DNA of 64,000 bases from Nanobdellota archaeon (GTDB lineage: Archaea; Nanobdellota; Nanobdellia; Woesearchaeales; GW2011-AR9): the NCBI GenBank assembly GCA_038044525.1, contig JBBSZV010000033.1, forward strand, positions 7,131-71,130, written 5' to 3'. Both the position numbers and the translations under genes were made by a program. Of this stretch, positions 7,189 to 54,876 are shown piece by piece. The notes beneath the pieces were generated by a model. The model did not search any database. It had not been told where the DNA came from and saw only the letters and a list, made by a program, of their open reading frames with translations. Each line of letters begins with the position of its first letter. Within the stretch, counting starts at the first letter, position 1.

Positions 7189-7437
7189 GTGCAAGATTTG
7201 AAATTGGGTAATATAACCTTCAGTAAGAACGTTCGAGAAGACATATTAGAGCTATTTGGTAAAAGTTTAGACGAAGAAGGATTTATTGTAGAAAAAGACG
7301 ATACTTCTCAGCGGGTTCTTACTCCAAAAGGTGAAGAAATCCATATCGATGAATGGGCCGGCGTAGTTAAAGGTTCTGAAGCTTTTGTTAAGAATGACGC
7401 TCTTTCTTTAATTGAACTTGCAAAAAAATTAGAATGA
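7189..7437 (+). CDS. Small hypothetical protein (82 aa, GTG start). First gene of an AT-rich island.
   Basis: An ORF in a low-GC segment. Its stop overlaps the next start (ATGA). Confidence 0.35.
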   Translation: MQDLKLGNITFSKNVREDILELFGKSLDEEGFIVEKDDTSQRVLTPKGEEIHIDEWAGVVKGSEAFVKNDALSLIELAKKLE

Positions 7438-8252
7438 ATCTTATTCTTGATAAGTTGAAAACAATATTTCACGGTAAGTTTGATGATATTTTATCAAATA
7501 ATAACATCAAGATTTTCGATTTTTCTAAAAATACAACGAATATACTTGAAATTAAAGATGGCCAGAAACTTGATATTGATTTAGGTAAAGCCAATGCAGA
7601 AGAAAAAAAATTAGTAAAAGAAAGAATTATAGATTTAATGGTTCAAAGCGAAAATGGGGCATTTCTGTCTGCTGATTCCTTCCAAAAGACTAAAAAAATT
7701 AAGTCAAATCTTCCTACCGGAGAAGATGAGGAGCTATTAAAATTCTATAAAGATAAACTTAAACTTGAAATGTATAAAGCATTGGAAGCTTCTCTTGTCG
7801 TACGAAATGCTTTTAAAAAAGGTGAGGAAATAACTGATCTTAAAAAAGATATATCTAAACTTTACCCTACTTTTGGTAAAAATATTTGCAATTTAGTGAC
7901 TAGGGAATATTTTCATACTCACTTTAAAGATTTATACGATAGCATGATCGAAGATCAAGATTTTGATATTAATCTCTATCAAAGAAAAGTAGAAAAAATT
8001 GTTCAGTCTCTTCCTTATACAGTTTTCGTAACGAGATATAGGTCTTATGATGATCTAAGTGGTGAAGTGAGATTTAAACTTGAAAAATTAAATAAATATG
8101 GGGCCGGCAGATTATTACTCCACGGCTTAGGAAGGGAAAATGTCAGTGCTACTTTAAATCTCTTAGAAGAATACAAAGATGATAAAAGCATCACTATCCA
8201 AAAAGAATTAAATCCTGGAGGAACAATCATTACAGCAACTCTAATTTTCTGA
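7434..8252 (+). CDS. Hypothetical protein with a C-terminal Smr-like (small MutS-related) nuclease domain.
   Basis: The C-terminus reads ...GAGRLLLHGLGRENVSATLNLLEEY...SITIQKELNPGGTIITATLIF. This matches the Smr pattern LDLHGL...A...L...IItGkG...GG.G...v.L. The N-terminal 190 aa are unrecognised. Confidence 0.4.
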   Translation: MNLILDKLKTIFHGKFDDILSNNNIKIFDFSKNTTNILEIKDGQKLDIDLGKANAEEKKLVKERIIDLMVQSENGAFLSADSFQKTKKIKSNLPTGEDEELLKFYKDKLKLEMYKALEASLVVRNAFKKGEEITDLKKDISKLYPTFGKNICNLVTREYFHTHFKDLYDSMIEDQDFDINLYQRKVEKIVQSLPYTVFVTRYRSYDDLSGEVRFKLEKLNKYGAGRLLLHGLGRENVSATLNLLEEYKDDKSITIQKELNPGGTIITATLIF

Positions 8253-8291
8253 GAAACCGACCTAAAACTATATAAAATCAAACTTCTTTGT

Positions 8292-9791
8292 TTGAGCAAA
8301 AGAGGCATTATGGTCAAGTTTAAAGTAAAGGATATGGATATAGCTACAGGAGGAATCTTTGTAGCTATCCTCAATCAGAAAGATGCGCACAAGCTGGACC
8401 TGCATTCCGGCGATCGTATCTTAGTCAAACACAACAGCAAATCCATCACTTGCATTTTAGACATTTCTCAAAGCAATAAAGCGGTTCCTGAAGGAAAAGT
8501 GGGCTTATTTGAAGAAGTTTTAACCAAACTTCATATCAAGCAAGGCGCAGCAGTTGAAGTAAAACTCACTGAAAAGCCGGAATCAGTAAAACATATCCGC
8601 GATAAATTGTTCGGCAAGGAACTTAATTACACGGAATTGTATCACATCACTGATGACATCACTCACGATCGGTTGACCGACATCGAAAAAACTTACTTCG
8701 TGGCTGCATCATTCATCCATAAATTAAGTGTGCGTGAAATAGTATGGCTGACCAAAGCGATGGTGTTGACCGGGCGGCAATTAAAGTTTAAGGGAGTAAC
8801 TTTAGACAAGCACAGTATCGGCGGAGTGCCCGGCAATAGAACTACCATGGTGGTAATTCCTATAGTAGCTGCTGCCGGCTATACCATTCCCAAAACAAGT
8901 TCACGTGCCATCACTTCCCCGGCCGGGACAGCTGACACCATGGAATGTTTAGCAAAAGTAGAATTATCTGAATCCAAAATAAGGCAGATAGTGCGGAAAA
9001 CGGGAGCCTGCATAGTACACGGCGGCTCGATGAATTTAGCTCCTGCCGACGACAAAATAATCGATGTTGAACATCCTCTCTCAATCGATGCCGAAGGGCA
9101 GTTGCTGGCTTCAGTCATGGCCAAAAAACATTCGGTCGGCGCCAATCATGTGCTGATCGATATTCCCATGGGCAGAAGCACTAAAGCGAGAACTAGGAGC
9201 GAAGCAAAGCATCTAAAGAAGATGTTTGAGCTTATCGGAAGGAAGTTAGGCATAAATGTCCGGGTGATAATCACGGACGGCTCGCATCCAATAGGGAATG
9301 GAATAGGGCCGTTGTTAGAAGCTGAGGATGTCATGGCGGTATTACGCAATGATCCTTTAGCGCCGTCAGATCTGAAAGAGAAATCATTGATGATGGCCGG
9401 AATTCTGCTGGAGATGGCCCAGTGCTGCACGGTCGGCGAAGGAAGAAAGCTTGCTCAGGAGATGTTGGAAAGCGGGAAAGCATTAAAGAAAATGGACAAT
9501 ATTATTCTGGCGCAAGGGAAGCAGAAAATGCCGGCATTGGGAAAATACCGTTTCGCGGTTAAAAGCAGCAAATCTGGTAAAATAACTGAAATAGATAATG
9601 AAATTATCGCTAAAATAGCTAGGATAGCTGGGGCTCCAGATGATAAAGGAGCAGGGCTGTACCTGTCAAAGAAAATTAATGTTCACGTGCAGAAGGGGCA
9701 GTTGTTGTACACCATCTATGCAGAAAGCCAGTTCAAATTGGATCGGGCGAAGGAGTTTGCAGCTTCCAATAATGGTTATGCGGTGAAATAA
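8292..9791 (+). CDS. deoA: AMP phosphorylase (archaeal thymidine-phosphorylase-family enzyme with an N-terminal extension).
   Basis: About 500 aa. The N-terminal domain resembles archaeal AMPpase (KFKVKDMDIATGGIFVAILNQKDAHKLDLHSGDRI). The pyrimidine-nucleoside-phosphorylase core contains SIGGVPGNRTTMVV, TSSRAITSPAGTADTME and GGSMNLAPADD. The true start may be the internal M at 8310. Confidence 0.75.
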   Translation: MSKRGIMVKFKVKDMDIATGGIFVAILNQKDAHKLDLHSGDRILVKHNSKSITCILDISQSNKAVPEGKVGLFEEVLTKLHIKQGAAVEVKLTEKPESVKHIRDKLFGKELNYTELYHITDDITHDRLTDIEKTYFVAASFIHKLSVREIVWLTKAMVLTGRQLKFKGVTLDKHSIGGVPGNRTTMVVIPIVAAAGYTIPKTSSRAITSPAGTADTMECLAKVELSESKIRQIVRKTGACIVHGGSMNLAPADDKIIDVEHPLSIDAEGQLLASVMAKKHSVGANHVLIDIPMGRSTKARTRSEAKHLKKMFELIGRKLGINVRVIITDGSHPIGNGIGPLLEAEDVMAVLRNDPLAPSDLKEKSLMMAGILLEMAQCCTVGEGRKLAQEMLESGKALKKMDNIILAQGKQKMPALGKYRFAVKSSKSGKITEIDNEIIAKIARIAGAPDDKGAGLYLSKKINVHVQKGQLLYTIYAESQFKLDRAKEFAASNNGYAVK

Positions 9792-11380: not shown

Positions 11381-12124
11381 TTATTCCATCTTCCGGCAAA
11401 AAGTTATGAACCCGGTATGTCCCAGCATCTGGAATTCCGGGCGCATGATCTGGTCGTTGATGGCCCATTTGCGTTCCAGCAATTCAACGGTTTCCAAAAC
11501 TTTGAACGAAGTCCCTTTAAGCGAATCGAGGAATCTTTTTACTTGGGTCAAGTTCGGGAGGTAACTGACTAAATATCTTCCGTTCTTCAGCGCTTTTTCC
11601 GCATGGCCGACCGCCCGCCAAGGTTCCGGCAGGTCTAAAGTGATAAGGTCCAGATTTTTCTCCCTGATGCCTTTGTAGATGTCGTCCTGCTTAAGGACCA
11701 CATTCTGCACCCCCGAAAGAGCGATATTCCGATAGACTATCTTGTGGTGTTCCGGGTTTATTTCGTAAACGGTCACTTTCTTGCAGATATTCGCCAAAGC
11801 CAGGCATAACGAGCCGGAACCGCCTCCAGCATCAACTACTTCCCATTCTTTAGCCATCCCGGTCTTGGCCATGATCAATCCGGCGTCTTTCTGCAGGATG
11901 ATCTGCGGCCCGCGCTGGAAATTTTCCCATAGATCGACAAAGGATGCATCCATAAGATGGAATGTTTTACCTGTGCTTGATTTTATCAGGCTTTTTGGGC
12001 CCTTTAAATCCTTGCTCTTGATGGTGCCTGAAGAAGTATAGAAGTCTTCATCAGAATTTTTTATCAGGAATTTCTTGCCGGTCGATGGTTCAATCAGGAT
12101 TTTCGGATCGCTTTTACTGGCCAT
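11381..12124 (-). CDS. trmI: tRNA (adenine57/58-N1)-methyltransferase TrmI (Gcd14 family).
   Basis: VVDAGGGSGSLCLALA is the SAM motif I. The LDLITLDLPEPW signature and NGRYLVSYLPNLTQV are also present. Confidence 0.8.
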   Translation of the reverse strand: MASKSDPKILIEPSTGKKFLIKNSDEDFYTSSGTIKSKDLKGPKSLIKSSTGKTFHLMDASFVDLWENFQRGPQIILQKDAGLIMAKTGMAKEWEVVDAGGGSGSLCLALANICKKVTVYEINPEHHKIVYRNIALSGVQNVVLKQDDIYKGIREKNLDLITLDLPEPWRAVGHAEKALKNGRYLVSYLPNLTQVKRFLDSLKGTSFKVLETVELLERKWAINDQIMRPEFQMLGHTGFITFCRKME

Positions 12125-12573: not shown

Positions 12574-13113
12574 ATGGCCTTCGACAACGAAAAGAAAACT
12601 TTCCTCTCCAAGACCGATAAAAGCAAGAAGGGGAGCATCGATGCAAAGATCATCCCCCTGCTGAAAACCATCAATGAGAAAAAAGATTATTACACCACTT
12701 CTTCCTGCTCAGGGAGAGCGTATCTTTGGGAAGGTTCCGGTAAAAAATCAGAAACGCAATGGCTGAAAGTGAGCCATGACCCGATAGGGGTGGATTTTTT
12801 TGAGACGGCGGATAAAAGCATGGTGTGGCTGCGGCTGGAAGGTATGATACTGCACGTAGCCTGTCGGGACCTGGAAGCGGCCAATGTTCTCTTGGATAAA
12901 GCGAGGAAATATTACAAGAAGAGTTCCATCCTAAGCGCCAGCAATAAAATAATTGTGGAATTAAGGGGCAGCGAAATCGTAGAGATGCCATTATATAAGG
13001 ATGGCAGATCATTGTTTTCCGGAGATTTAGGCTGGCTGCGGGATTTGATCAACAGTAAATTAAGCCGGATGTGGGGCACTTTAGAAAAGTTCAGAAAAGA
13101 TATTCGGGATTGA
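12574..13113 (+). CDS. taw3: tRNA wybutosine-synthesis protein Taw3 (TYW3 family).
   Basis: Contains the conserved TYW3 motif DYYTTSSCSGRAYLWEG. A length of 179 aa is typical. Confidence 0.6.
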   Translation: MAFDNEKKTFLSKTDKSKKGSIDAKIIPLLKTINEKKDYYTTSSCSGRAYLWEGSGKKSETQWLKVSHDPIGVDFFETADKSMVWLRLEGMILHVACRDLEAANVLLDKARKYYKKSSILSASNKIIVELRGSEIVEMPLYKDGRSLFSGDLGWLRDLINSKLSRMWGTLEKFRKDIRD

Positions 13114-33890: not shown

Positions 33891-35780
33891 ATGAGCGTCG
33901 AATCATTCTTAGAGATCTGTAAACGGCAGTATGAGCCGCAGCATCTTTCCGTATTTAATGCAGCTTTGGCCTTTTCTCAAAAGCATCTCGGCGAAGTAAA
34001 ACGATTGGCAGGTGATTCCTTTTTTGACCATAATGTCCGGGCGGGAGAAATCTTGGCGGACAGCAAAGTGTCGCCGGAAGTGGTGGTCGCCGGTCTGCTG
34101 CATGGGATTTTAAAATATTCTTCTGAAAAAGAGGTCTTAAATATTTTCGGCAAAGAGATCCTGCTTTTGCTGAAAGGAGAAGAAGAAATCAAGGCGGTCA
34201 AATCAAAAAATCCTCTTCTGGAAGCCGAAGCCCTGCGGAGAATATTGCTTGCGACATTAAGAGACGTACGGGTTATTTTTGTTAAGCTCGCCGCTAAATT
34301 AGATAATCTTAGGGCCATCTCGGTGCTTCCCGAGGAAGACCAGAGACGCATCGCAGAAGAAGTAATGGAAGTATATGCGCCGCTGGCTAACAGATTGGGA
34401 TTGGAGAAAATAAAAAATCCTCTGGAAGATTTGGCGCTGCAGATCCTGAATCCGGAAAAATATCGCGAAATAACCGAATTCCTGGAAGAATCACGTGAGC
34501 AGCGGGAAGCGTTGATCAAAGAAATGATTCAATCGGTGAAAGAGTTGGCCGCGGGAAAAGTTGAGATCATCAAAATCAAAGGCCGTTCCAAGCACATCTA
34601 CAGCATCTACAAGAAGCTGGTGCAGCGCTGCGTGCCTTTAGCAGAACAATATGATTTGTCGGGCATCAGGGTAATTGTTCCGGAAGTAAATGATTGCTAT
34701 ACTCTCTTGGGACTCTTGCACGAGAAGCTCGAGTCCGCGGAAGGAAGATTAAAAGATTATATCGCCAACCCTAAACCTAACTTTTATCGTTCTCTTCACA
34801 CCGGAATTCTGTCGTCATCAGGAAAAATTGTGGAGATTCAGATTCGCACCCCGGAAATGGATGAGCTTGCTGAGGAAGGGCTGGCTGCGCACTGGCGGTA
34901 TAAGAAACTGAATTCCGATGAATTATTTGAAAAGAAAATTGCCTGGCTGAAAGGAGTTTTAGATATGCAGAAGGAAGAAAACCACGAATTTTTAGAGATG
35001 GCTAAAGTAGACGTGTTTGGGGATAATATCTATTGCTACACGCCAAAAGGCGACGTTAAAGAACTGCCTAAGGGAGCAAATATCCTTGATTTTGCTTATA
35101 TGATCCATGAAGAAGTCGGAAACCATGCGGTAGGAGCGCACGTGAACGGAAAATTCGTCTCTTTGAAACAGCAGCTTTCTTCCGGAGATGTAGTGGAGAT
35201 ACTTACCAACAAAAGCCAGCGCCCCCGACGCGACTGGCTGAAATTAGTCAAATCTGCGAATGCCAGAAATAAGATTCGGAAATCTCTTAAAGAATATGAT
35301 AAGCTTCCGGCTCTTCATTTTAAGCAGCTTAAACCGGTGGTGACAGAAGAGCAGGGCATTTTAGCAGAAGCGCCCGACTATGCCAGCGCAGTATGCGTAT
35401 TAGCTAAATGCTGCAATCCTCTGCCGGGAGAAGATATTGCCGGCTTAATCACTAAAAGAAGAGTCATTTCCGTCCACAGGATCGATTGCCGCGCGGCATT
35501 GAAAGAGCAGGAGCGCTGGGTGGCGGTGCAATGGAAAAATGGATTCAACCAAAAAATAAGATTTTATGCTGTAGCTGAGGAAAGGAGCGGCCTGTTGGCT
35601 GATCTTTTAAACGTCATAGCCAATACCGGTTTTGAGGTTAAGGAAGCAAAAGCAAAATTGTTAGACATAACCTTAGCGCAATGCTCTTTTTTAGTGATAC
35701 CAAAAGATTTGGAACATCTGAAAGAACTGGTAAGGCGGGCGCAGAAAGTAAGGGGGATAAAAAAGATGTATTTCGGATGA
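33891..35780 (+). CDS. Long RelA/SpoT homolog (RSH) with HD-like, (p)ppGpp synthetase, TGS and ACT domains.
   Basis: The synthetase motifs are GRSKHIYSIYKKL, IRVIV...CYTLLGLLH, KDYIANPKPNFYRSLHT, VEIQIRTPEMDELAEEGLAAHWRYK. The TGS domain reads YCYTPKGDVKELPKGANILDFAYMIHEEVGNHAVGAHVNGKFVSL. In the HD region, LLHGIL replaces the usual LLHDVVED, so the hydrolase may be inactive. Confidence 0.75.
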   Translation: MSVESFLEICKRQYEPQHLSVFNAALAFSQKHLGEVKRLAGDSFFDHNVRAGEILADSKVSPEVVVAGLLHGILKYSSEKEVLNIFGKEILLLLKGEEEIKAVKSKNPLLEAEALRRILLATLRDVRVIFVKLAAKLDNLRAISVLPEEDQRRIAEEVMEVYAPLANRLGLEKIKNPLEDLALQILNPEKYREITEFLEESREQREALIKEMIQSVKELAAGKVEIIKIKGRSKHIYSIYKKLVQRCVPLAEQYDLSGIRVIVPEVNDCYTLLGLLHEKLESAEGRLKDYIANPKPNFYRSLHTGILSSSGKIVEIQIRTPEMDELAEEGLAAHWRYKKLNSDELFEKKIAWLKGVLDMQKEENHEFLEMAKVDVFGDNIYCYTPKGDVKELPKGANILDFAYMIHEEVGNHAVGAHVNGKFVSLKQQLSSGDVVEILTNKSQRPRRDWLKLVKSANARNKIRKSLKEYDKLPALHFKQLKPVVTEEQGILAEAPDYASAVCVLAKCCNPLPGEDIAGLITKRRVISVHRIDCRAALKEQERWVAVQWKNGFNQKIRFYAVAEERSGLLADLLNVIANTGFEVKEAKAKLLDITLAQCSFLVIPKDLEHLKELVRRAQKVRGIKKMYFG

Positions 35781-39186: not shown

Positions 39187-40152
39187 ATGTCAGAACCAAA
39201 ACAAATTCCCACCACCGAGAACATCGTATTTAAGCCCGCTTTCATAGAACGATATTCGCAGTTAACTGACTGGGAAGAATTCAAGAAGTATTCTCTTTCT
39301 TTCCTGCGCAGGAGCATCCGGGTCAATACCTTGATGGGGACGATCCAGGAGGCGCGGAAAAGCATCGAAGCCAAGGGATGGAAGCTCATGCCGATCCCCT
39401 GGTGCAAGGAAGGTTTCTGGATATCCCATGATGAAAGAAGGGATGTAGGAAACTTACTGGAGCATCATACAGGAAAAATTTACGTACAGGAAGCGGCTTC
39501 CATGATTCCGCCATTAGTATTAAAGCCAAAACCAGGAGACATAGTCTTGGACATGGCCGCTTCCCCTGGAAGCAAGACTACGCAGATGGCAGCGATGATG
39601 AATAATAAAGGATTAATCATTGCTAACGATTACAAAGGCGATCGTCTGCAGTCCTTAGGGATAAATCTGCAGCGCAGCATCACCACTAATTGCATCATCA
39701 CGCTGATGCGCGGGCAGGGCATAAAAGGGATGCAGTTTGACAAGATCCTATTGGATGCGCCTTGTTCGGGAACCGGCGCTATCAGGAAGAGCCTTAAGAC
39801 CATCGGCATCTGGAATCCGCACATGATCACCAAATTAGCCCGAGAACAGAAAGAACTTATCACTGTAGCTTTTGAAAATCTTAAGCCGGGCGGAGAGCTG
39901 GTCTATTCCACCTGTTCGGTCGAGCCGGAAGAGAACGAAGGGGTAGTCAGTTATCTGCTTAAGAAATATGAAAATGCTAAAGCGATAAAAGTTACTCTTA
40001 AAGGGCTGAAAACCAGCCCCACGATAGCGGAATTTGAAGGAGAACAATATCATCCTGAGGTAAAGAACGCTTTGCGCATCTGGCCGCAGGATAATGATAC
40101 CGAAGGTTTTTTCGTTGCAAAGCTACGAAAAATACCCACGAACGAAGCGTAG
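39187..40152 (+). CDS. NOL1/NOP2/Sun-family RNA (cytosine-C5)-methyltransferase (aTrm4/RsmB-like).
   Basis: Contains VLDMAASPGSKTTQMA, FDKILLDAPCSGTGAIRK and LVYSTCSVEPEENE. Confidence 0.75.
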   Translation: MSEPKQIPTTENIVFKPAFIERYSQLTDWEEFKKYSLSFLRRSIRVNTLMGTIQEARKSIEAKGWKLMPIPWCKEGFWISHDERRDVGNLLEHHTGKIYVQEAASMIPPLVLKPKPGDIVLDMAASPGSKTTQMAAMMNNKGLIIANDYKGDRLQSLGINLQRSITTNCIITLMRGQGIKGMQFDKILLDAPCSGTGAIRKSLKTIGIWNPHMITKLAREQKELITVAFENLKPGGELVYSTCSVEPEENEGVVSYLLKKYENAKAIKVTLKGLKTSPTIAEFEGEQYHPEVKNALRIWPQDNDTEGFFVAKLRKIPTNEA

Positions 40153-45732: not shown

Positions 45733-46299
45733 CTATCTTTCCTTAACTTTCCCTTCTACTAAATTAACTACCTTAGAAGGCCGCCCTTTCTTTTCGCCTT
45801 CGTAGATGATGAAGTCTACTCCGTCTTTAATGGTTTGATCCAAATCTTCCAATGAAGTCATGAATGGCTGTCCGGAACGATTGGCGGAAGTTGTAATAAT
45901 CGGAAAACCCAGTTCTTCGACCACGTCGCCGAACCAATGGCCGGGGATTCTTACACCGATGGTTTCTTGGTCTAAATTTACGTTTTTAGCGATAGCGTTC
46001 TTATTTTTTAGTTTCAGGATGAGCGTGTAAGGGCCGGGAAGCTTATTGAGCAAATCCTTTGCTTCCTTAGTAATTATGCAATTTTCGGTGATCCATTCTT
46101 TTGAAGGGGCGATGATTGAGAATGGGTTTGCTGGGCGCTCTTTTAATCTCCTGATTTTTCCCACTGCGTTTTTGTCAAGTGCATTGCAGCCGATGCCGTA
46201 GATGGTGTCGGTCGGATAGATGAATACTGCTCCATCACGGATCCGTCCGGCTATCTCGGCATAGCGCAGGCGAAGTTCAGCTTTGGTAAGAGTTTCCAT
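45733..46299 (-). CDS. tsaC: L-threonylcarbamoyladenylate synthase (TsaC/YrdC/Sua5 family; t6A biosynthesis).
   Basis: Contains FIYPTDTIYGIGCNALDKNAVGKIRRLKERPANPFSIIAPS and PGPYTLIL. Confidence 0.75.
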   Translation of the reverse strand: METLTKAELRLRYAEIAGRIRDGAVFIYPTDTIYGIGCNALDKNAVGKIRRLKERPANPFSIIAPSKEWITENCIITKEAKDLLNKLPGPYTLILKLKNKNAIAKNVNLDQETIGVRIPGHWFGDVVEELGFPIITTSANRSGQPFMTSLEDLDQTIKDGVDFIIYEGEKKGRPSKVVNLVEGKVKER

Positions 46300-47291: not shown

Positions 47292-47618
47292 TTAAAACAA
47301 ATCGTCGTCAATCGCATCGAAATATGAGATTGGCTCCAAATCTAAATCAAAGGGGTCGTACGTTTGTTTTTGCGGTTGTTTTCTTTCCCAAACCAGCGAG
47401 TGATAAATAGGCCTTAAAATATCCCGCGGGCTCGGATACAAGACGCGCACATTTCTCATCTCATATCTCAAAGGCAGCTCTCCCTCTTCTACGAATGTTC
47501 CCCGCGCTGAACAAATAATTTTTGTTTGGTCATCCCTGATAGTCACATATTCCGGCCCTTCCGGGACAAATATTACTTTTTCATCGATAGCGATATCTTC
47601 AATAATGCGCAAAATCAT
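47292..47618 (-). CDS. Hypothetical protein.
   Basis: 108-aa ORF. Its start overlaps the upstream LonB stop by 4 nt (ATGA). Confidence 0.3.
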
Positions 47619-48286
47619 TTTTTCCTTCGGAATATTTTTTCTTTAAGTTTCTCATTCCCATTCCAATCCAAGGCATGTCCCATCACTTCTTCAATAGTAT
47701 CTACGGGGATAATTTTTACTTTTACCAATTTCTCTTCATCGATAACAATATCCTGGAGGTTTGATTTAGGAACAATGACCGTTTTCATCCCGGCATCGAT
47801 GGCTGCTTCGACCTTGGAAGAAACGCCGCCGACAGGAAGGACTTCTCCGCGGACGGACAGCGAACCGGTCATGGCCACGTCTTGTTTTATGGGTATCTCT
47901 TTCAATGCAGATATGATGGCGGTCGCCACGGCGATGGAAGCTGAATCTCCTTCCACGCCCTCATGGGTCTGCAGGAACTGCACGAATATATCTTTAGTCT
48001 CTTTGATATCTTCGCCGAAATATTTTTGGATGATAGCAGACACGTTCTTGACTGCTTCCTTGGCGATCTCTCCGAGTTTTCCGGTAGCAATAATCTCTGC
48101 TTTCTTCCCGCCGGGAGTCACTTCTGCTTCTATCGGCAGTAAAATTCCCGAGTATGCAGAACCGCCGCCGATGACCGCCAATCCATTGACTCTTCCGACG
48201 CGCAGGCCGGAAGTGATGATCACTTCGTATTCTTTCTTGCGTTCGATATATTTGTCTGCCATCTGCTGTTCCAGGGGCCTAGCCAA
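47615..48286 (-). CDS. lonB: Lon protease proteolytic domain (archaeal LonB C-terminal part).
   Basis: Contains [13 protein letters not shown] and [16 protein letters not shown] (catalytic Ser), followed by [21 protein letters not shown] (catalytic Lys). It is in the same frame as the upstream ATPase ORF, separated from it by a single TAG. Confidence 0.7.
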
Positions 48287-48307
48287 TATTTTTGCTTCCT
48301 TGACGTG

Positions 48308-49573
48308 CTATCTGTTCACAAACTCGGATTCTTCTTCTCGTGCTAAGTCGCCGGCAGCCCGAACTAATCCGCCCAGGCCGCGCAGGTGCAACGTAAGGCG
48401 CCCCTTGTGGTTGGCTCTCCTCCGCGCTTCTTCCACGATCGCTTTCAGTGCAGAAAGATCAAAATGGGGAATTTTTCTGTCTTCCTTTTTTATTTCCTGG
48501 GCAACAAAACGGGCGATCTTAGTCCGGTTCTCCTTAGTGTCAGGCATGGTTTCGTTCATATATACTTCATACCCGTATCCCCTGATCCTGGAACGCAGGG
48601 CTGGATGCATATTCTTGATGGTCTCGGGATTTCCTGCGGCGACCAAAATAAAATCGCAGGGCACCGGTTCGGTCCGTACCATCGCGCCGGCAGAGCGTTC
48701 AGACTGTCCGGTGATGGGGAATTTTTTTTCCTGCAAGGCAGAGAGCATTTCTTGCTGTGTTCTGGGATGAAGCGTAGCGATTTCGTCGATGAATAACACT
48801 CCCTTGTGTGCTTTATGGATCATTCCGGCCACGACTCGCTGGTTTGCCGGAGTTCCTAATCCGCCTGATTGAAACGGGTCGTGCAGTACATCACCTAACA
48901 ATGCTCCTGCGTGTGCGCCGGTAGCATCAAAGAATTGCGCTTGTTTTTTGTCAAAATTGTCTACGATAACTTTTGGTGCGATAACTTTAGATGTTTGGAA
49001 CATTCTCGGCCCCATATTTATAGATATGGCAAATCCAGCAAGAAACATCATGCCGCCTAAGAAAAAAGCGGTGAACATCAAATCTGATTGATAATGATAG
49101 CGGATCCACCAAGGCGCAATGAAAGTTATGATAGCGACAATGAACAGCAGAAAACTATTATTTTTCATAGACTTATTAGCATCCAACTGATAACTTAATG
49201 CTTCTTCTCTCCCTTTTCCGGCAGGCAGGGTTTTGATGTAAGGATTATTTTCATCATTAGGGTTGGGATAAGCAAGGGTATCTTTCAAGTCGGATTTGGG
49301 AAGAAGTTCGGCCAAGGCAATTCCCAGCATGGATTTTCCTGTTCCTGGCTCGCCTATCAATAGGACGTGCCGGCGCTGCAGTGCAGCTTTTTTAATTATT
49401 TTGACTGCTTCTTCCTGGCCCAGAACTTGGTCTACTATTTTATCAGGTACCTTTATGTTCTTAGTGGTGATATTTTTAGCTGATTCCATACTTACCTTAG
49501 AACATCTATCACTCGATGGGTGTAAATTCCAGTCTTGATTTAAAAAGATTGCGGAGAAATGGGGGAGATTCAA
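48308..49573 (-). CDS. lonB: Archaeal membrane-bound LonB AAA+ ATPase module with the characteristic two-TM insertion between Walker A and Walker B.
   Basis: Walker [25 protein letters not shown] insert [17 protein letters not shown]...[17 protein letters not shown]. Walker [12 protein letters not shown]. It ends at an in-frame TAG (48308-48310). Confidence 0.75.
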
Positions 49574-52411: not shown

Positions 52412-53614
52412 ATGGAAATATATCAACCGGCAGAAGATTCGTACTTATTGCAGAGATTTGTGTCCCGGCATGCTTACGGCCGGGTGCTTGACGTAGGCAC
52501 CGGTTCGGGGATACAGGCCATAACTGCTATAGGAAATCCGCAGGTGCGGGAAGTAATTGCAATAGATATAAACGCGGAAGCAGCCGGTGTTTTTGAGCAG
52601 AAGGTGCAGAAACAGAAACTGCGTAAGATCAAGGTCCTGCAAAGCGACCTGTTTGAAGAAGTAAGCGGTTATTTCAATGTAATCATTTTCAATCCCCCGT
52701 ATCTGCCGCAAGATAAAGGTATCAGGGACGACGCGATCTATGGTGGAAAGAAAGGGTGGGAGATTTCTGAACGGTTCTTTAAAGAGGTTTCAAATCATCT
52801 GTTTCCAGAAGGGATGATATTATTTTTGTTCTCTTCCCTGACCAATAAACAGAAGATAGAAGAGATACTTTATCATAATATGTTGGGGTGGGAAGAGCTG
52901 GGCGAAGAAAAGATCGCTTTTGAAACTTTGTATGTGTATAAGATCACCAAAACATCTTTACTGCGCCAGCTGGAAGGAAAACTGCTGCGGGATATACATT
53001 ATTTTGCAGAAGGCAAGCGGGGAGTGATATATACTGCTAAATCTGATAAGAGCAAGCTGGTGAAAAGCCATTTTCCTTCAAAGCGGGAGATAGTTACTGT
53101 CGCGATCAAAGTAAAGAAGAAAGAAAGCAAGGCGGAAGATGCCATCGCCAGCGAAGCGCTGTGGCTGAAAGCCCTAAACAAGCAGGGCATAGGGCCGAGA
53201 TTTTTGTTCTCCGAGGAAGAATATGTGGTGTATGAGTTTGTGGAAGGGGAATATATAGAAGATTGGCTGCCGAAAGCTTCCCCGGAAGCGGTAAAAAAAG
53301 TCCTGGTCGACGTTTTGGAGCAATGTTTTATCCTCGACCAGATGAAGGTGAACAAAGAAGAGATGCACAATCCCTTAAAACATATTATCATCGATGCGGA
53401 GAATATGCCGGTCTTGATCGATTTTGAACGGTGTTATGAGACCGAAAAACCGCACAACGTGACTCAGTTTGTGGATTTCATCGGCAAACGGCAGAAATTA
53501 TTGCTCAAGAAAGGTTTTGCTTTCGGCCTGAAAGAGCTGCGGGAAGCGGCAGTTAAATATAAGCAAACTTATGGGGAAAAGGAGTTTGAAGCGATGGTTG
53601 GATTGTTGAGATGA
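52412..53614 (+). CDS. Fusion protein: an N-terminal Mtq2/PrmC-like N5-glutamine methyltransferase joined to a C-terminal Bud32/RIO-like small protein kinase domain.
   Basis: N-terminal half: YQPAEDSYLL, VLDVGTGSGIQAI, VIIFNPPYLP, DGGKKGWE (archaeal Mtq2-like). C-terminal half: FAEGKRGVIYTA, VAIKVKKKE, VVYEFVEGEYIEDWL, KHIIIDAENMPVLIDFERC. This follows the Bud32 order: Gly-loop / VAIK / hinge / catalytic loop / DFG-like. Confidence 0.6.
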   Translation: MEIYQPAEDSYLLQRFVSRHAYGRVLDVGTGSGIQAITAIGNPQVREVIAIDINAEAAGVFEQKVQKQKLRKIKVLQSDLFEEVSGYFNVIIFNPPYLPQDKGIRDDAIYGGKKGWEISERFFKEVSNHLFPEGMILFLFSSLTNKQKIEEILYHNMLGWEELGEEKIAFETLYVYKITKTSLLRQLEGKLLRDIHYFAEGKRGVIYTAKSDKSKLVKSHFPSKREIVTVAIKVKKKESKAEDAIASEALWLKALNKQGIGPRFLFSEEEYVVYEFVEGEYIEDWLPKASPEAVKKVLVDVLEQCFILDQMKVNKEEMHNPLKHIIIDAENMPVLIDFERCYETEKPHNVTQFVDFIGKRQKLLLKKGFAFGLKELREAAVKYKQTYGEKEFEAMVGLLR

Positions 53615-54174: not shown

Positions 54175-54876
54175 CTAATAATACTCTACTTCTTTTTCAG
54201 CGTAGATGCCTTTCTTCAGTTCCACCGGCCGCCATTCGTCGATGATTAAGGTCGCTCCCAGCCATTCTGACAATTCCTTGGGGTTGCCTATGGTTGCCGA
54301 AAGGCCGATGATCTGCGGCTTGATGAGGCTCTTAAGGAGCGTAAGGATAATTTCCAAAGTAGGTCCCCTGGAAGTATCGTTCAATAGATGGATCTCATCC
54401 ACGATCACGGTTTTCACTTCGGAAAGCCAGCCAACCCTATGCCGCAGAAGCGAATCCAGCTTTTCCGTGGTAAGGATAAGCAAGTCGTAATCGGTCAGAT
54501 AGTCGGCTTCAGAATCTACGTCGCCGGTCGAAAGTATCACTTTGTATGGAGAATCCTTGAACAAAGTTAGATATTCCTTGTATTTTTCTGTCCCTAGGGC
54601 TTTGAGCGGCACTAAATATATACTCTTGCTCTTTTTGCGCTCTTGTTCCAAGGAATTATCCTGGGTATTATCCTGAGTATCATGGTTGCCCAGAGTATTA
54701 TATATAGCCATAGTAGCGATCAAAGTTTTCCCGGAAGCAGTAGGGGCGCAGACCAGAATTGATTTTTTCTCCAAGAGTCCGGCTTTTACGGCTTTCTCCT
54801 GGATGGGCGTAAGAGTATTGAATGCGGCATATCGTTTTTTGAACGGTTCGGGCAGGGGAAGGCTGTTGATGTCCAT
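54175..54876 (-). CDS. Ski2/Hel308-like superfamily-2 helicase, N-terminal RecA1 domain only (truncated, 233 aa).
   Basis: Q-motif TPIQEKA. Motif I CAPTASGKT. Motif II VIVDEIHLL. Motif III LSATIGN. The ORF ends just after ...IIDEWRPVELKKG, so the RecA2 and downstream domains are missing. Confidence 0.55.
   Translation of the reverse strand: MDINSLPLPEPFKKRYAAFNTLTPIQEKAVKAGLLEKKSILVCAPTASGKTLIATMAIYNTLGNHDTQDNTQDNSLEQERKKSKSIYLVPLKALGTEKYKEYLTLFKDSPYKVILSTGDVDSEADYLTDYDLLILTTEKLDSLLRHRVGWLSEVKTVIVDEIHLLNDTSRGPTLEIILTLLKSLIKPQIIGLSATIGNPKELSEWLGATLIIDEWRPVELKKGIYAEKEVEYY

Follow-up and report, generated by a model that had tools for sequence, protein, structure and literature searches.

Orthologues of the methyltransferase Mtq2 have been reported in all archaeal phyla, and the Haloferax enzyme (HvoMtq2) was found experimentally to methylate the GGQ-motif glutamine in the release factor aRF1 (PMC6144793). 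Trm112 aids archaeal Mtq2 in vitro, is dispensable in vivo, and is absent from some archaeal orders; Mtq2 of both yeast and Haloferax is insoluble without it (PMC6144793). COG2112 was shown to be the family of ArkI, the ATP-dependent kinase making 2'-phosphouridine at tRNA position 47 (Up47) (Ohira et al., Nature 2022, PMC9095486). Enzyme and modification were discovered in 2022 and linked mostly to thermophiles, and Up47 has always been found in the context U47-C48 (PMC9095486). ArkI enzymes are stand-alone proteins in the papers, whereas the window analysed here carries a gene in which a domain assigned to this family is fused to the C-terminus of an Mtq2-type methyltransferase. The window is the whole 64-kb stretch of a Nanobdellota archaeon (assembly GCA_038044525.1, contig JBBSZV010000033.1, positions 7,131 to 71,130 of the forward strand), and the gene lies at positions 52412-53614 of it. 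Both families are known; the Mtq2-ArkI combination is not described in the literature searched, and the sequence-only reading of the same DNA, to which such an architecture was also new, was correct in this respect. The parts of the fusion are as follows.

52412..53614, + strand: complete open reading frame (ORF) of the Mtq2-ArkI fusion, 400 amino acids (aa), stop included, from the ORF list
52412..52951, + strand: Mtq2/HemK2 N5-glutamine-type class I methyltransferase domain, aa 1-180, by TIGR00537, HEMK2 alignment, and Foldseek
52952..52981, + strand: linker TSLLRQLEGK, aa 181-190, short and helical (helix 182-189 in the AlphaFold2 (AF2) model)
52982..53611, + strand: ArkI-family (COG2112) RNA-kinase-like domain, aa 191-400, by profile and Foldseek

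The fusion is a genuine gene conserved in DPANN archaea. A protein 100% identical to its product is already on record in the protein database, and one member of the cluster of this protein has no annotation other than 'HemK2/MTQ2 family protein methyltransferase [Nanoarchaeota archaeon]'; public annotation covers the methyltransferase half alone and leaves the kinase half unnamed. Among 5.8 billion proteins searched, 1,872 matched the fusion protein, and more than 120 homologues are full-length. Nearly all of the best 120 have 93-100% query coverage and 52-76% identity, the exceptions being two fragments with 79-81% coverage. In the reference scan, with one genome per GTDB species, 520 stretches encode a relative, and the best 80 of them, hereafter the related loci, are nearly all full-length matches (44-72% identity) in metagenome-assembled genomes (MAGs) of Woesearchaeota and Nanoarchaeota. 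When the ORFs of the related loci were called anew and searched with domain hidden Markov models for both halves, the Mtq2 and kinase halves lay within one complete ORF in 75 of the 80. Contig ends cut the gene in three others, and in the remaining two, L013 (674-1876) and L075 (9063-10268), it is split. The kinase-domain profile told a similar story, as the best 150 matching clusters (50% identity) comprised 78 Mtq2 fusions, 65 standalone proteins, and 6 with another domain. Linker residues L184, E188, and K190 are invariant among the fusions in an alignment of 30 homologues.

The sequence-only reading had described this gene as an unusual fusion of Mtq2/HemK2 with a small-kinase fold and had named a frameshift artefact as one possibility that would undo it. 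The split genes at L013 and L075 could be quoted in favour of an assembly or frameshift artefact joining two separate genes, but the split at L013 was traced to one in-frame stop between the domains, and the complete two-domain ORFs come from independent reference assemblies. With full-length proteins from many sources among the best 120 matches, fusions making up more than half of the best 150 clusters, and a conserved linker, the chance of an artefact is negligible; it was ruled out by the intact ORFs and the many full-length homologues, and the claim of a fusion held in full. The 228-aa kinase part of L013 is listed as a hypothetical protein in the NCBI annotation.

Record titles of the relatives name Woesearchaeota, Nanoarchaeota, or Nanoarchaeia. 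Many MAGs from ENA among them bear the name 'uncultured Methanosarcinales', which is taken to be a fault of labelling. The locus L062 (MFTJ01000051.1) has a full-length fusion gene on a 5-kb contig in a MAG labelled Candidatus Nomurabacteria, a bacterium of the candidate phyla radiation (CPR), and most likely it is a mis-binned archaeal contig.

The N-terminal half scored 112.6 bits with TIGR00537, the model of the HemK2/MTQ2 family, which is above the cutoff of 87, and it was also matched by Pfam MTS with E=1e-14. With the equivalog model NF011529, it nearly reached the cutoff of 162, with a score of 158.8. Residues 2-180 are collinear with residues 10-202 of human HEMK2/N6AMT1, a chain of 203 residues (E=3e-13, 28-29% identity), with YxPAED(S/T), motif I, DIN, NPPY, and GGxxGxE all matched. 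The alignment thus covers the full length of Mtq2/HemK2/N6AMT1 (KMT9), and the window protein differs from these by a C-terminal extension of 220 residues. In Foldseek, the N-terminal half of the AF2 model was closest to N6AMT1(HEMK2)/KMT9-TRMT112 and E. cuniculi Mtq2, with template modelling (TM) scores of 0.76-0.87. Three motifs are recognised on this half.

52421..52441, + strand: YQPAEDS motif, aa 4-10, the N-terminal Mtq2/HemK2 signature, aligned with VYEPAEDT of HEMK2
52484..52510, + strand: S-adenosylmethionine (SAM)-binding motif I VLDVGTGSG, aa 25-33, aligned with LEVGSGSG of HEMK2
52691..52702, + strand: catalytic motif IV NPPY, aa 94-97, aligned with NPPY of HEMK2

They are found where the sequence-only reading had placed them, and in the 30 homologues Y4, P6, E8, D9, and S10 of the first, L26, D27, G29, T30, G31, and G33 of the second, and N94, P96, and Y97 of the third are invariant, with P95 conserved in at least 90%. 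The half is acidic, with an isoelectric point (pI) of 5.8. As judged from these comparisons, it is a complete and apparently active Mtq2, and its orthology to HvoMtq2 points to the GGQ glutamine of aRF1 as the substrate.

For the C-terminal half, Pfam and NCBIfam gave weak generic kinase matches only. A curated ArkI model is absent from both, and for this reason the databases miss the kinase half. TkArkI and GaArk1 themselves have only sub-threshold Bud32/APH matches there, mostly to Bud32 models and with 22-34 bits vs cutoffs of at least 125. When compared with the PDB, a profile built from 36 domains, both fused and standalone, recognised GaArk1 (8yv4/8yv5) at 2.5e-28 and TkArkI (7vnx) at 6.7e-17. 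The best protein kinase in this search was RAD53 at 2e-4, and the 60 matches listed include neither Bud32 nor RIO. A search with the single sequence also recovered 8yv4/8yv5, at 1.1e-11. The titles of these PDB entries read 'G. acetivorans RNA kinase Ark1'; the protein was crystallised with ATP, and the depositors name it an RNA kinase. The domain modelled alone had a predicted local distance difference test score (pLDDT) of 94. The top four Foldseek matches to this model were ArkI chains, GaArk1 with TM 0.79-0.81 and a root-mean-square deviation (rmsd) of 2.3 Å and TkArkI with TM 0.67-0.69, followed by FGFR, RET, and RIO kinases with E of about 1e-7 and 12-17% identity. Standalone homologues carry the source label 'COG2112 K07176 predicted Ser/Thr protein kinase'. 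The kinase domain is basic, with a median pI of 9.4 in fused and 9.8 in standalone proteins and a pI of 8.6 in the window protein, and this charge next to an acidic Mtq2 half fits RNA binding by the kinase half. The kinase-fold similarity expected by the sequence-only reading was upheld in both profile and structure searches; by these comparisons, the half belongs to the ArkI/COG2112 family, not to Bud32 or RIO.

The active site was mapped on an alignment of 330 domains, 201 fused and 129 standalone, with TkArkI and GaArk1 (numbering in the PDB is that of the paper plus 7). In TkArkI, alanine mutations of K32, G33, K51, E65, H130, Q132, K137, D149, N160, T162, and K201 have a strong effect and those of R95, Y200, and R202 a mild one (PMC9095486). 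D149A abolishes the activity, K51A and E65A markedly reduce it, N160A and T162A lower it, and K201A reduces it severely (PMC9095486). With R95 left out of the map, nine of the 13 residues are kept in the window protein and across the 330 domains, namely G33, K51, E65, K137, D149, N160, T162, Y200, and K201. The elements of the site are listed below.

53009..53023, + strand: P-loop EGKRG, aa 200-204, by the 330-domain alignment
53099..53110, + strand: VAIK, aa 230-233, with ATP-anchoring lysine K233 (TkArkI K51)
53153..53155, + strand: alphaC glutamate E248 (TkArkI E65)
53351..53383, + strand: catalytic loop NKEEMHNPLKH, aa 314-324, the KEE variant of HGQ....KH, aligned with TkArkI and GaArk1
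53420..53431, + strand: metal-binding loop DFER, aa 337-340, with ArkI-type DFE replacing DFG, by the 330-domain alignment
53456..53467, + strand: NVTQ, aa 349-352, the ArkI-specific subdomain IX motif (TkArkI N160/T162)
53558..53563, + strand: YK, aa 383-384, on the long C-terminal helix, part of the YKR RNA-binding motif (TkArkI Y200-K201)

The Gly-rich loop, VAIK, and DFE named by the sequence-only reading are thus present, and each is invariant or nearly so. In the P-loop, G201 (TkArkI G33) is found in all 201 fused domains and R203 in 200 of them. K233 is invariant in both fused and standalone domains, and so are E248, D337 (TkArkI D149), E339, and N349; F338 is kept in 327/330 and T351 in about 95%. 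Y383 is found in 201/201 and K384 in 181/201 fused domains (about 99% and 90% overall), while the third residue of YKR, R202 in TkArkI, is replaced by the variable Q385.

The catalytic loop was placed wrongly by the sequence-only reading. It had taken KHIIIDAEN as a catalytic H..D..N, and this string joins D328 and N331, two residues of a variable turn that are not conserved in the 30 homologues, to the conserved K323-H324. The real loop is aa 314-324, with DHGQIQGGKH as its counterpart in TkArkI and QKEEMNHPDRH in GaArk1. The HGQ triplet is changed to K315-E316-E317, and the downstream lysine and histidine are kept as K323 and H324 (TkArkI K137 and H138). K315 and E317, at the positions of H130 and Q132 in TkArkI, are changed residues, yet invariant across the 330 domains; P321 is conserved in 329/330, K323 in 326/330, and H324 in 93%. 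Since GaArk1 carries the identical KEE triplet, the KEE-type loop appears to mark a distinct branch of the ArkI family. A search for KEE-type ArkI among the validated species reached only proteins of Archaeoglobales and none of the validated species, and the supplement of the Nature 2022 paper is silent on catalytic-loop variants (PMC9095486).

Compared with known systems, the kinase half is closest to ArkI (7vnx; 8yv4/8yv5), with which it shares the P-loop glycine, VAIK lysine, alphaC glutamate, DFE, NxT, YK, and basic charge. TkArkI has a minimal kinase fold without subdomains VIII and X of eukaryotic protein kinases, and the window domain, with 210 aa, is as short (PMC9095486). It differs from TkArkI in the KEE triplet, in the equivalent of K32, and in the third YKR residue, of which the last two are not conserved. 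Bud32 of the KEOPS complex and RIO1/RIO2, also small archaeal or eukaryotic proteins of the kinase fold, are the nearest curated families to ArkI, at sub-threshold level; the window domain is without their HGDLxxxN loop, without a Kae1 partner or fusion, and scores far below their cutoffs. In overall architecture, a comparable protein is WbdD of E. coli O9a, a single chain likewise made up of an N-terminal class I methyltransferase and then a kinase-fold domain, and Foldseek aligned the two over 436 columns. The orientation of the domains is different (rmsd 12 Å) and identity is 13%, so the likeness is an analogy of architecture and not homology of function. WbdD has a polysaccharide terminus as its substrate, and the phosphate added there by its kinase is methylated by its methyltransferase, whereas the NPPY motif of the window protein predicts N-methylation.

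The fusion protein is probably a bifunctional modifier of the translation machinery, with methylation of the aRF1 GGQ glutamine and 2'-phosphorylation of RNA as the two activities suggested by its domains. The acidic N-terminal half would methylate the glutamine using SAM. The basic ArkI half would use ATP and a divalent metal, bound with K233, E248, and D337 of DFE, to phosphorylate the 2'-OH of an RNA ribose, most probably that of U47 in the variable loop of tRNAs, and the NxTQ helix together with YK of the long C-terminal helix would hold the RNA. The U47-C48 context was present in 10 of the 11 tRNAs found at related loci, which is weak and not discriminating evidence for Up47; there are no tRNA genes in the window. 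The full-length AF2 model has pLDDT 88 and a predicted TM score (pTM) of 0.82, and the latter suggests a defined packing of the domains. The halves are assumed to act independently, and the fusion would supply their co-expression and possibly, because the model predicts a fixed inter-domain arrangement, mutual stabilisation. Family membership of both halves, their intact active-site residues, and a fused ORF conserved in at least 80 species-level genomes are direct observations; the substrates of the halves and any mechanistic coupling of the activities are deduced from them. A second type of ArkI-like fusion supports the bifunctional reading, as the partner is there another domain acting on nucleic acid. 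In it, the kinase domain is followed by a C-terminal MGMT/Ogt domain (PF01035); it was found in P0193, P0327, P0329, P0346, P0359, and P0381, and the active-site motif PCHR is kept in five of the six.

Real coupling of translation termination with RNA 2'-phosphorylation in DPANN archaea is a further step and an unlikely one. It could take the form of an RNA-binding ArkI domain standing in for Trm112 and directing Mtq2 to the complex of aRF1 with aEF1alpha, which is shaped like a tRNA, or of one enzyme that coordinates tRNA phosphorylation with release-factor methylation.

Several points weigh against the bifunctional reading in all or part. If these genomes have an additional stand-alone Mtq2, a new substrate becomes conceivable for the fused methyltransferase. 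In the kinase half, E200 stands at the position of TkArkI K32, and this position is variable (K/H/E). KEE differs from HGQ at H130 and Q132, and mutation of either cripples TkArkI. Neither a published assay of a KEE-type ArkI nor a paper on GaArk1 was found in the literature searches, and for this reason an activity as RNA 2'-kinase and a specificity for U47 are extrapolated. ArkI is tied mainly to thermophiles, whereas the names of the related MAGs refer to groundwater and marine samples, and this raises the chance of another RNA target or role. In three related genomes, Mtq2 was not found next to the standalone ArkI-like genes, which therefore give no independent genomic evidence for functional coupling. 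In the neighbour-joining tree of 332 domains, fused and standalone forms are interspersed, with about 46 state changes, a count that fragmentary gene calls may inflate in a poorly resolved tree. A single origin of the fusion is unsupported by this mixture, which would reflect either repeated fusion and fission or an unresolved tree.

Three other explanations of the protein were weighed. Both domains could act on the same RNA, with the NPPY methyltransferase repurposed to an exocyclic base nitrogen and the ArkI half giving tRNA binding and 2'-phosphorylation. NPPY-type enzymes of the MTS fold include RNA methyltransferases forming N2-methylguanosine and N6-methyladenosine, and Trm11, RsmC/D, and TrmN6 are related enzymes methylating exocyclic base nitrogens in tRNA or rRNA. 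The weak matches of the domain to RsmC and TrmN models fit this, as do the RNA-binding family of the fusion partner, the fixed inter-domain arrangement predicted with the full-length model, and the structural analogue WbdD, a bifunctional methyltransferase-kinase acting twice on one substrate. The domain is nevertheless far under the cutoffs of the RNA methyltransferase models and above that of HemK2/MTQ2, it retains the Mtq2-specific YxPAEDS, and it aligns with HEMK2 from end to end. Mtq2 is also expected in every archaeon, and neither the window nor the roughly 1 Mb of related flanks, which make up a small fraction of each genome, showed a second copy; the same-RNA explanation is therefore rather improbable. 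Somewhat less credit is given to an ArkI-like domain that is mainly structural, a substitute for Trm112 with little or no kinase activity, to which the pseudokinase scaffold of the sequence-only reading comes close. The insolubility of yeast and Haloferax Mtq2 without Trm112, and its absence from some archaeal orders (PMC6144793), make such a role conceivable; a tightly packed two-domain protein is predicted, E200 replaces an important P-loop lysine of TkArkI, and no Trm112 was among the window ORFs scanned, although a 64-kb window cannot show absence. Against it, the residues for ATP and metal are all invariant in the 330 domains. K233, E248, D337, and N349 do not vary and K323, T351, and Y383 hardly do, in fused as in standalone domains, and this invariance argues for purifying selection on catalysis and not on a scaffold. 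Standalone ArkI-like proteins are moreover equally common in the lineage (65 vs 78 of the best 150 clusters). The scaffold is thus disfavoured, and it is considered quite unlikely.

A protein kinase or ATPase of the Bud32/RIO type, coupling Mtq2 to KEOPS and the synthesis of N6-threonylcarbamoyladenosine (t6A) or phosphorylating the release factor, is very improbable. The kinase fold is genuine, and 'Bud32/RIO-like', as the sequence-only reading had it, is reasonable at superfamily level, given the sub-threshold Bud32 matches of TkArkI and GaArk1 and a sub-threshold RIO1 Pfam match of one standalone relative. In the fold search, RIO1 and RIO2 structures had E of about 1e-6 to 1e-7, TM of about 0.5-0.7, and 14-17% identity, below ArkI and about three orders of magnitude behind it by E-value. 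Membership fails, as the ArkI structures are more than 12 orders of magnitude ahead of any protein kinase in the profile search, Bud32 and RIO models were not reported for the domain even at E<=1, the HGDLxxxN catalytic loop is absent with no conserved H..D..N in its place, and the ArkI-specific DFE, NxT, and YK are present. The TsaC/Sua5 gene that had suggested a KEOPS link does exist about 6 kb upstream, at 45733-46299 (YrdC/Sua5 domain, PF01300), but on the strand opposite to the fusion, with genes for LonB, ScpA, and a PKD-domain protein between them, and it is not a conserved neighbour. No Kae1/TsaD, Bud32, Pcc1, Cgi121, Trm112, aRF1, or KptA was found among the window ORFs scanned, and the conserved neighbours of the 80 related loci include no translation-related or KEOPS partner. 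A separate bud32 or kae1, which the sequence-only reading advised to look for in the genome, is thus absent from the ORFs scanned in the 64 kb covered. Membership in Bud32/RIO and the link to KEOPS were rejected on profile, fold, motif, and neighbourhood evidence, and the coupling to t6A proposed earlier has no support.

The bifunctional Mtq2-ArkI reading extends the ArkI family into DPANN archaea. Its domain is widespread in Woesearchaeota and Nanoarchaeota, with a release-factor methyltransferase attached in about half of the closest clusters, and annotation can be corrected for hundreds of proteins now labelled 'methyltransferase' alone. The natural fusion hints that phosphorylation of tRNA may be linked with the termination of translation. 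If the coupling were true, then, taken with the many ArkI-like genes in these lineages, whose MAGs have names pointing to groundwater and marine samples, internal RNA 2'-phosphorylation would have a role beyond heat stabilisation, possibly in nuclease resistance or tRNA quality control in ultra-small symbionts.

The neighbours of the fusion gene in the window encode an RsmB/NOP2-like methyltransferase, an M29 peptidase, the YrdC/Sua5-domain protein, LonB, ScpA, the PKD-domain protein, a DEAD-domain-only protein, and an S-layer-like protein. Across the 80 related loci, the conserved neighbours represent synteny only and are the DEAD-domain protein, the S-layer-like protein, a protein with glycosyltransferase and tetratricopeptide repeat (TPR) domains, ScpA, and LonB. 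The DEAD/DEAH protein, coded at 54175-54876 (- strand) and convergent with the fusion gene, has the N-terminal domain only and is 217-233 aa long. Its retention as a short ORF in 63/80 related loci means that the helicase is naturally short or split and not a fragment. The standalone ArkI-like genes of Woesearchaeota (L001-L005) have a conserved surrounding of their own. Downstream, the gene for the small subunit of DNA primase is convergent and slightly overlaps them, and upstream, two uncharacterised proteins are encoded, about 586 and 415 aa long.

The LonB gene at 47615-49573 (- strand) has an in-frame TAG at 48308-48310, where relatives encode lysine; in them the gene is a single ORF of about 621 aa. 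Stop-codon reassignment was suspected, but all three stops are in regular use in the window (TAA 25, TGA 21, TAG 12), and the break therefore goes back to a nonsense mutation or to an error of sequencing and not to recoding. Other genes for RNA modification are a Trm61/GCD14-like 1-methyladenosine methyltransferase at 11384-12124 (- strand), TYW3 of the wyosine pathway at 12574-13110 (+ strand), and the RsmB/NOP2-like 5-methylcytidine methyltransferase at 39187-40152 (+ strand). At 33891-35777 (+ strand), a long RelA/SpoT homologue is encoded with HD_4, RelA_SpoT synthetase, TGS, and ACT domains, on a contig that is otherwise archaeal (DPANN). Long enzymes of this type are typically bacterial, and the gene may have been acquired by horizontal transfer. 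At 7434-9788 (+ strand), a 272-aa ORF without a Pfam match ends with TGA, and a thymidine/AMP-phosphorylase-like gene (Glycos_transf_3 and PYNP_C) comes after it in the same frame; these are probably two adjacent genes, with read-through or an N-terminal extension as the alternative.

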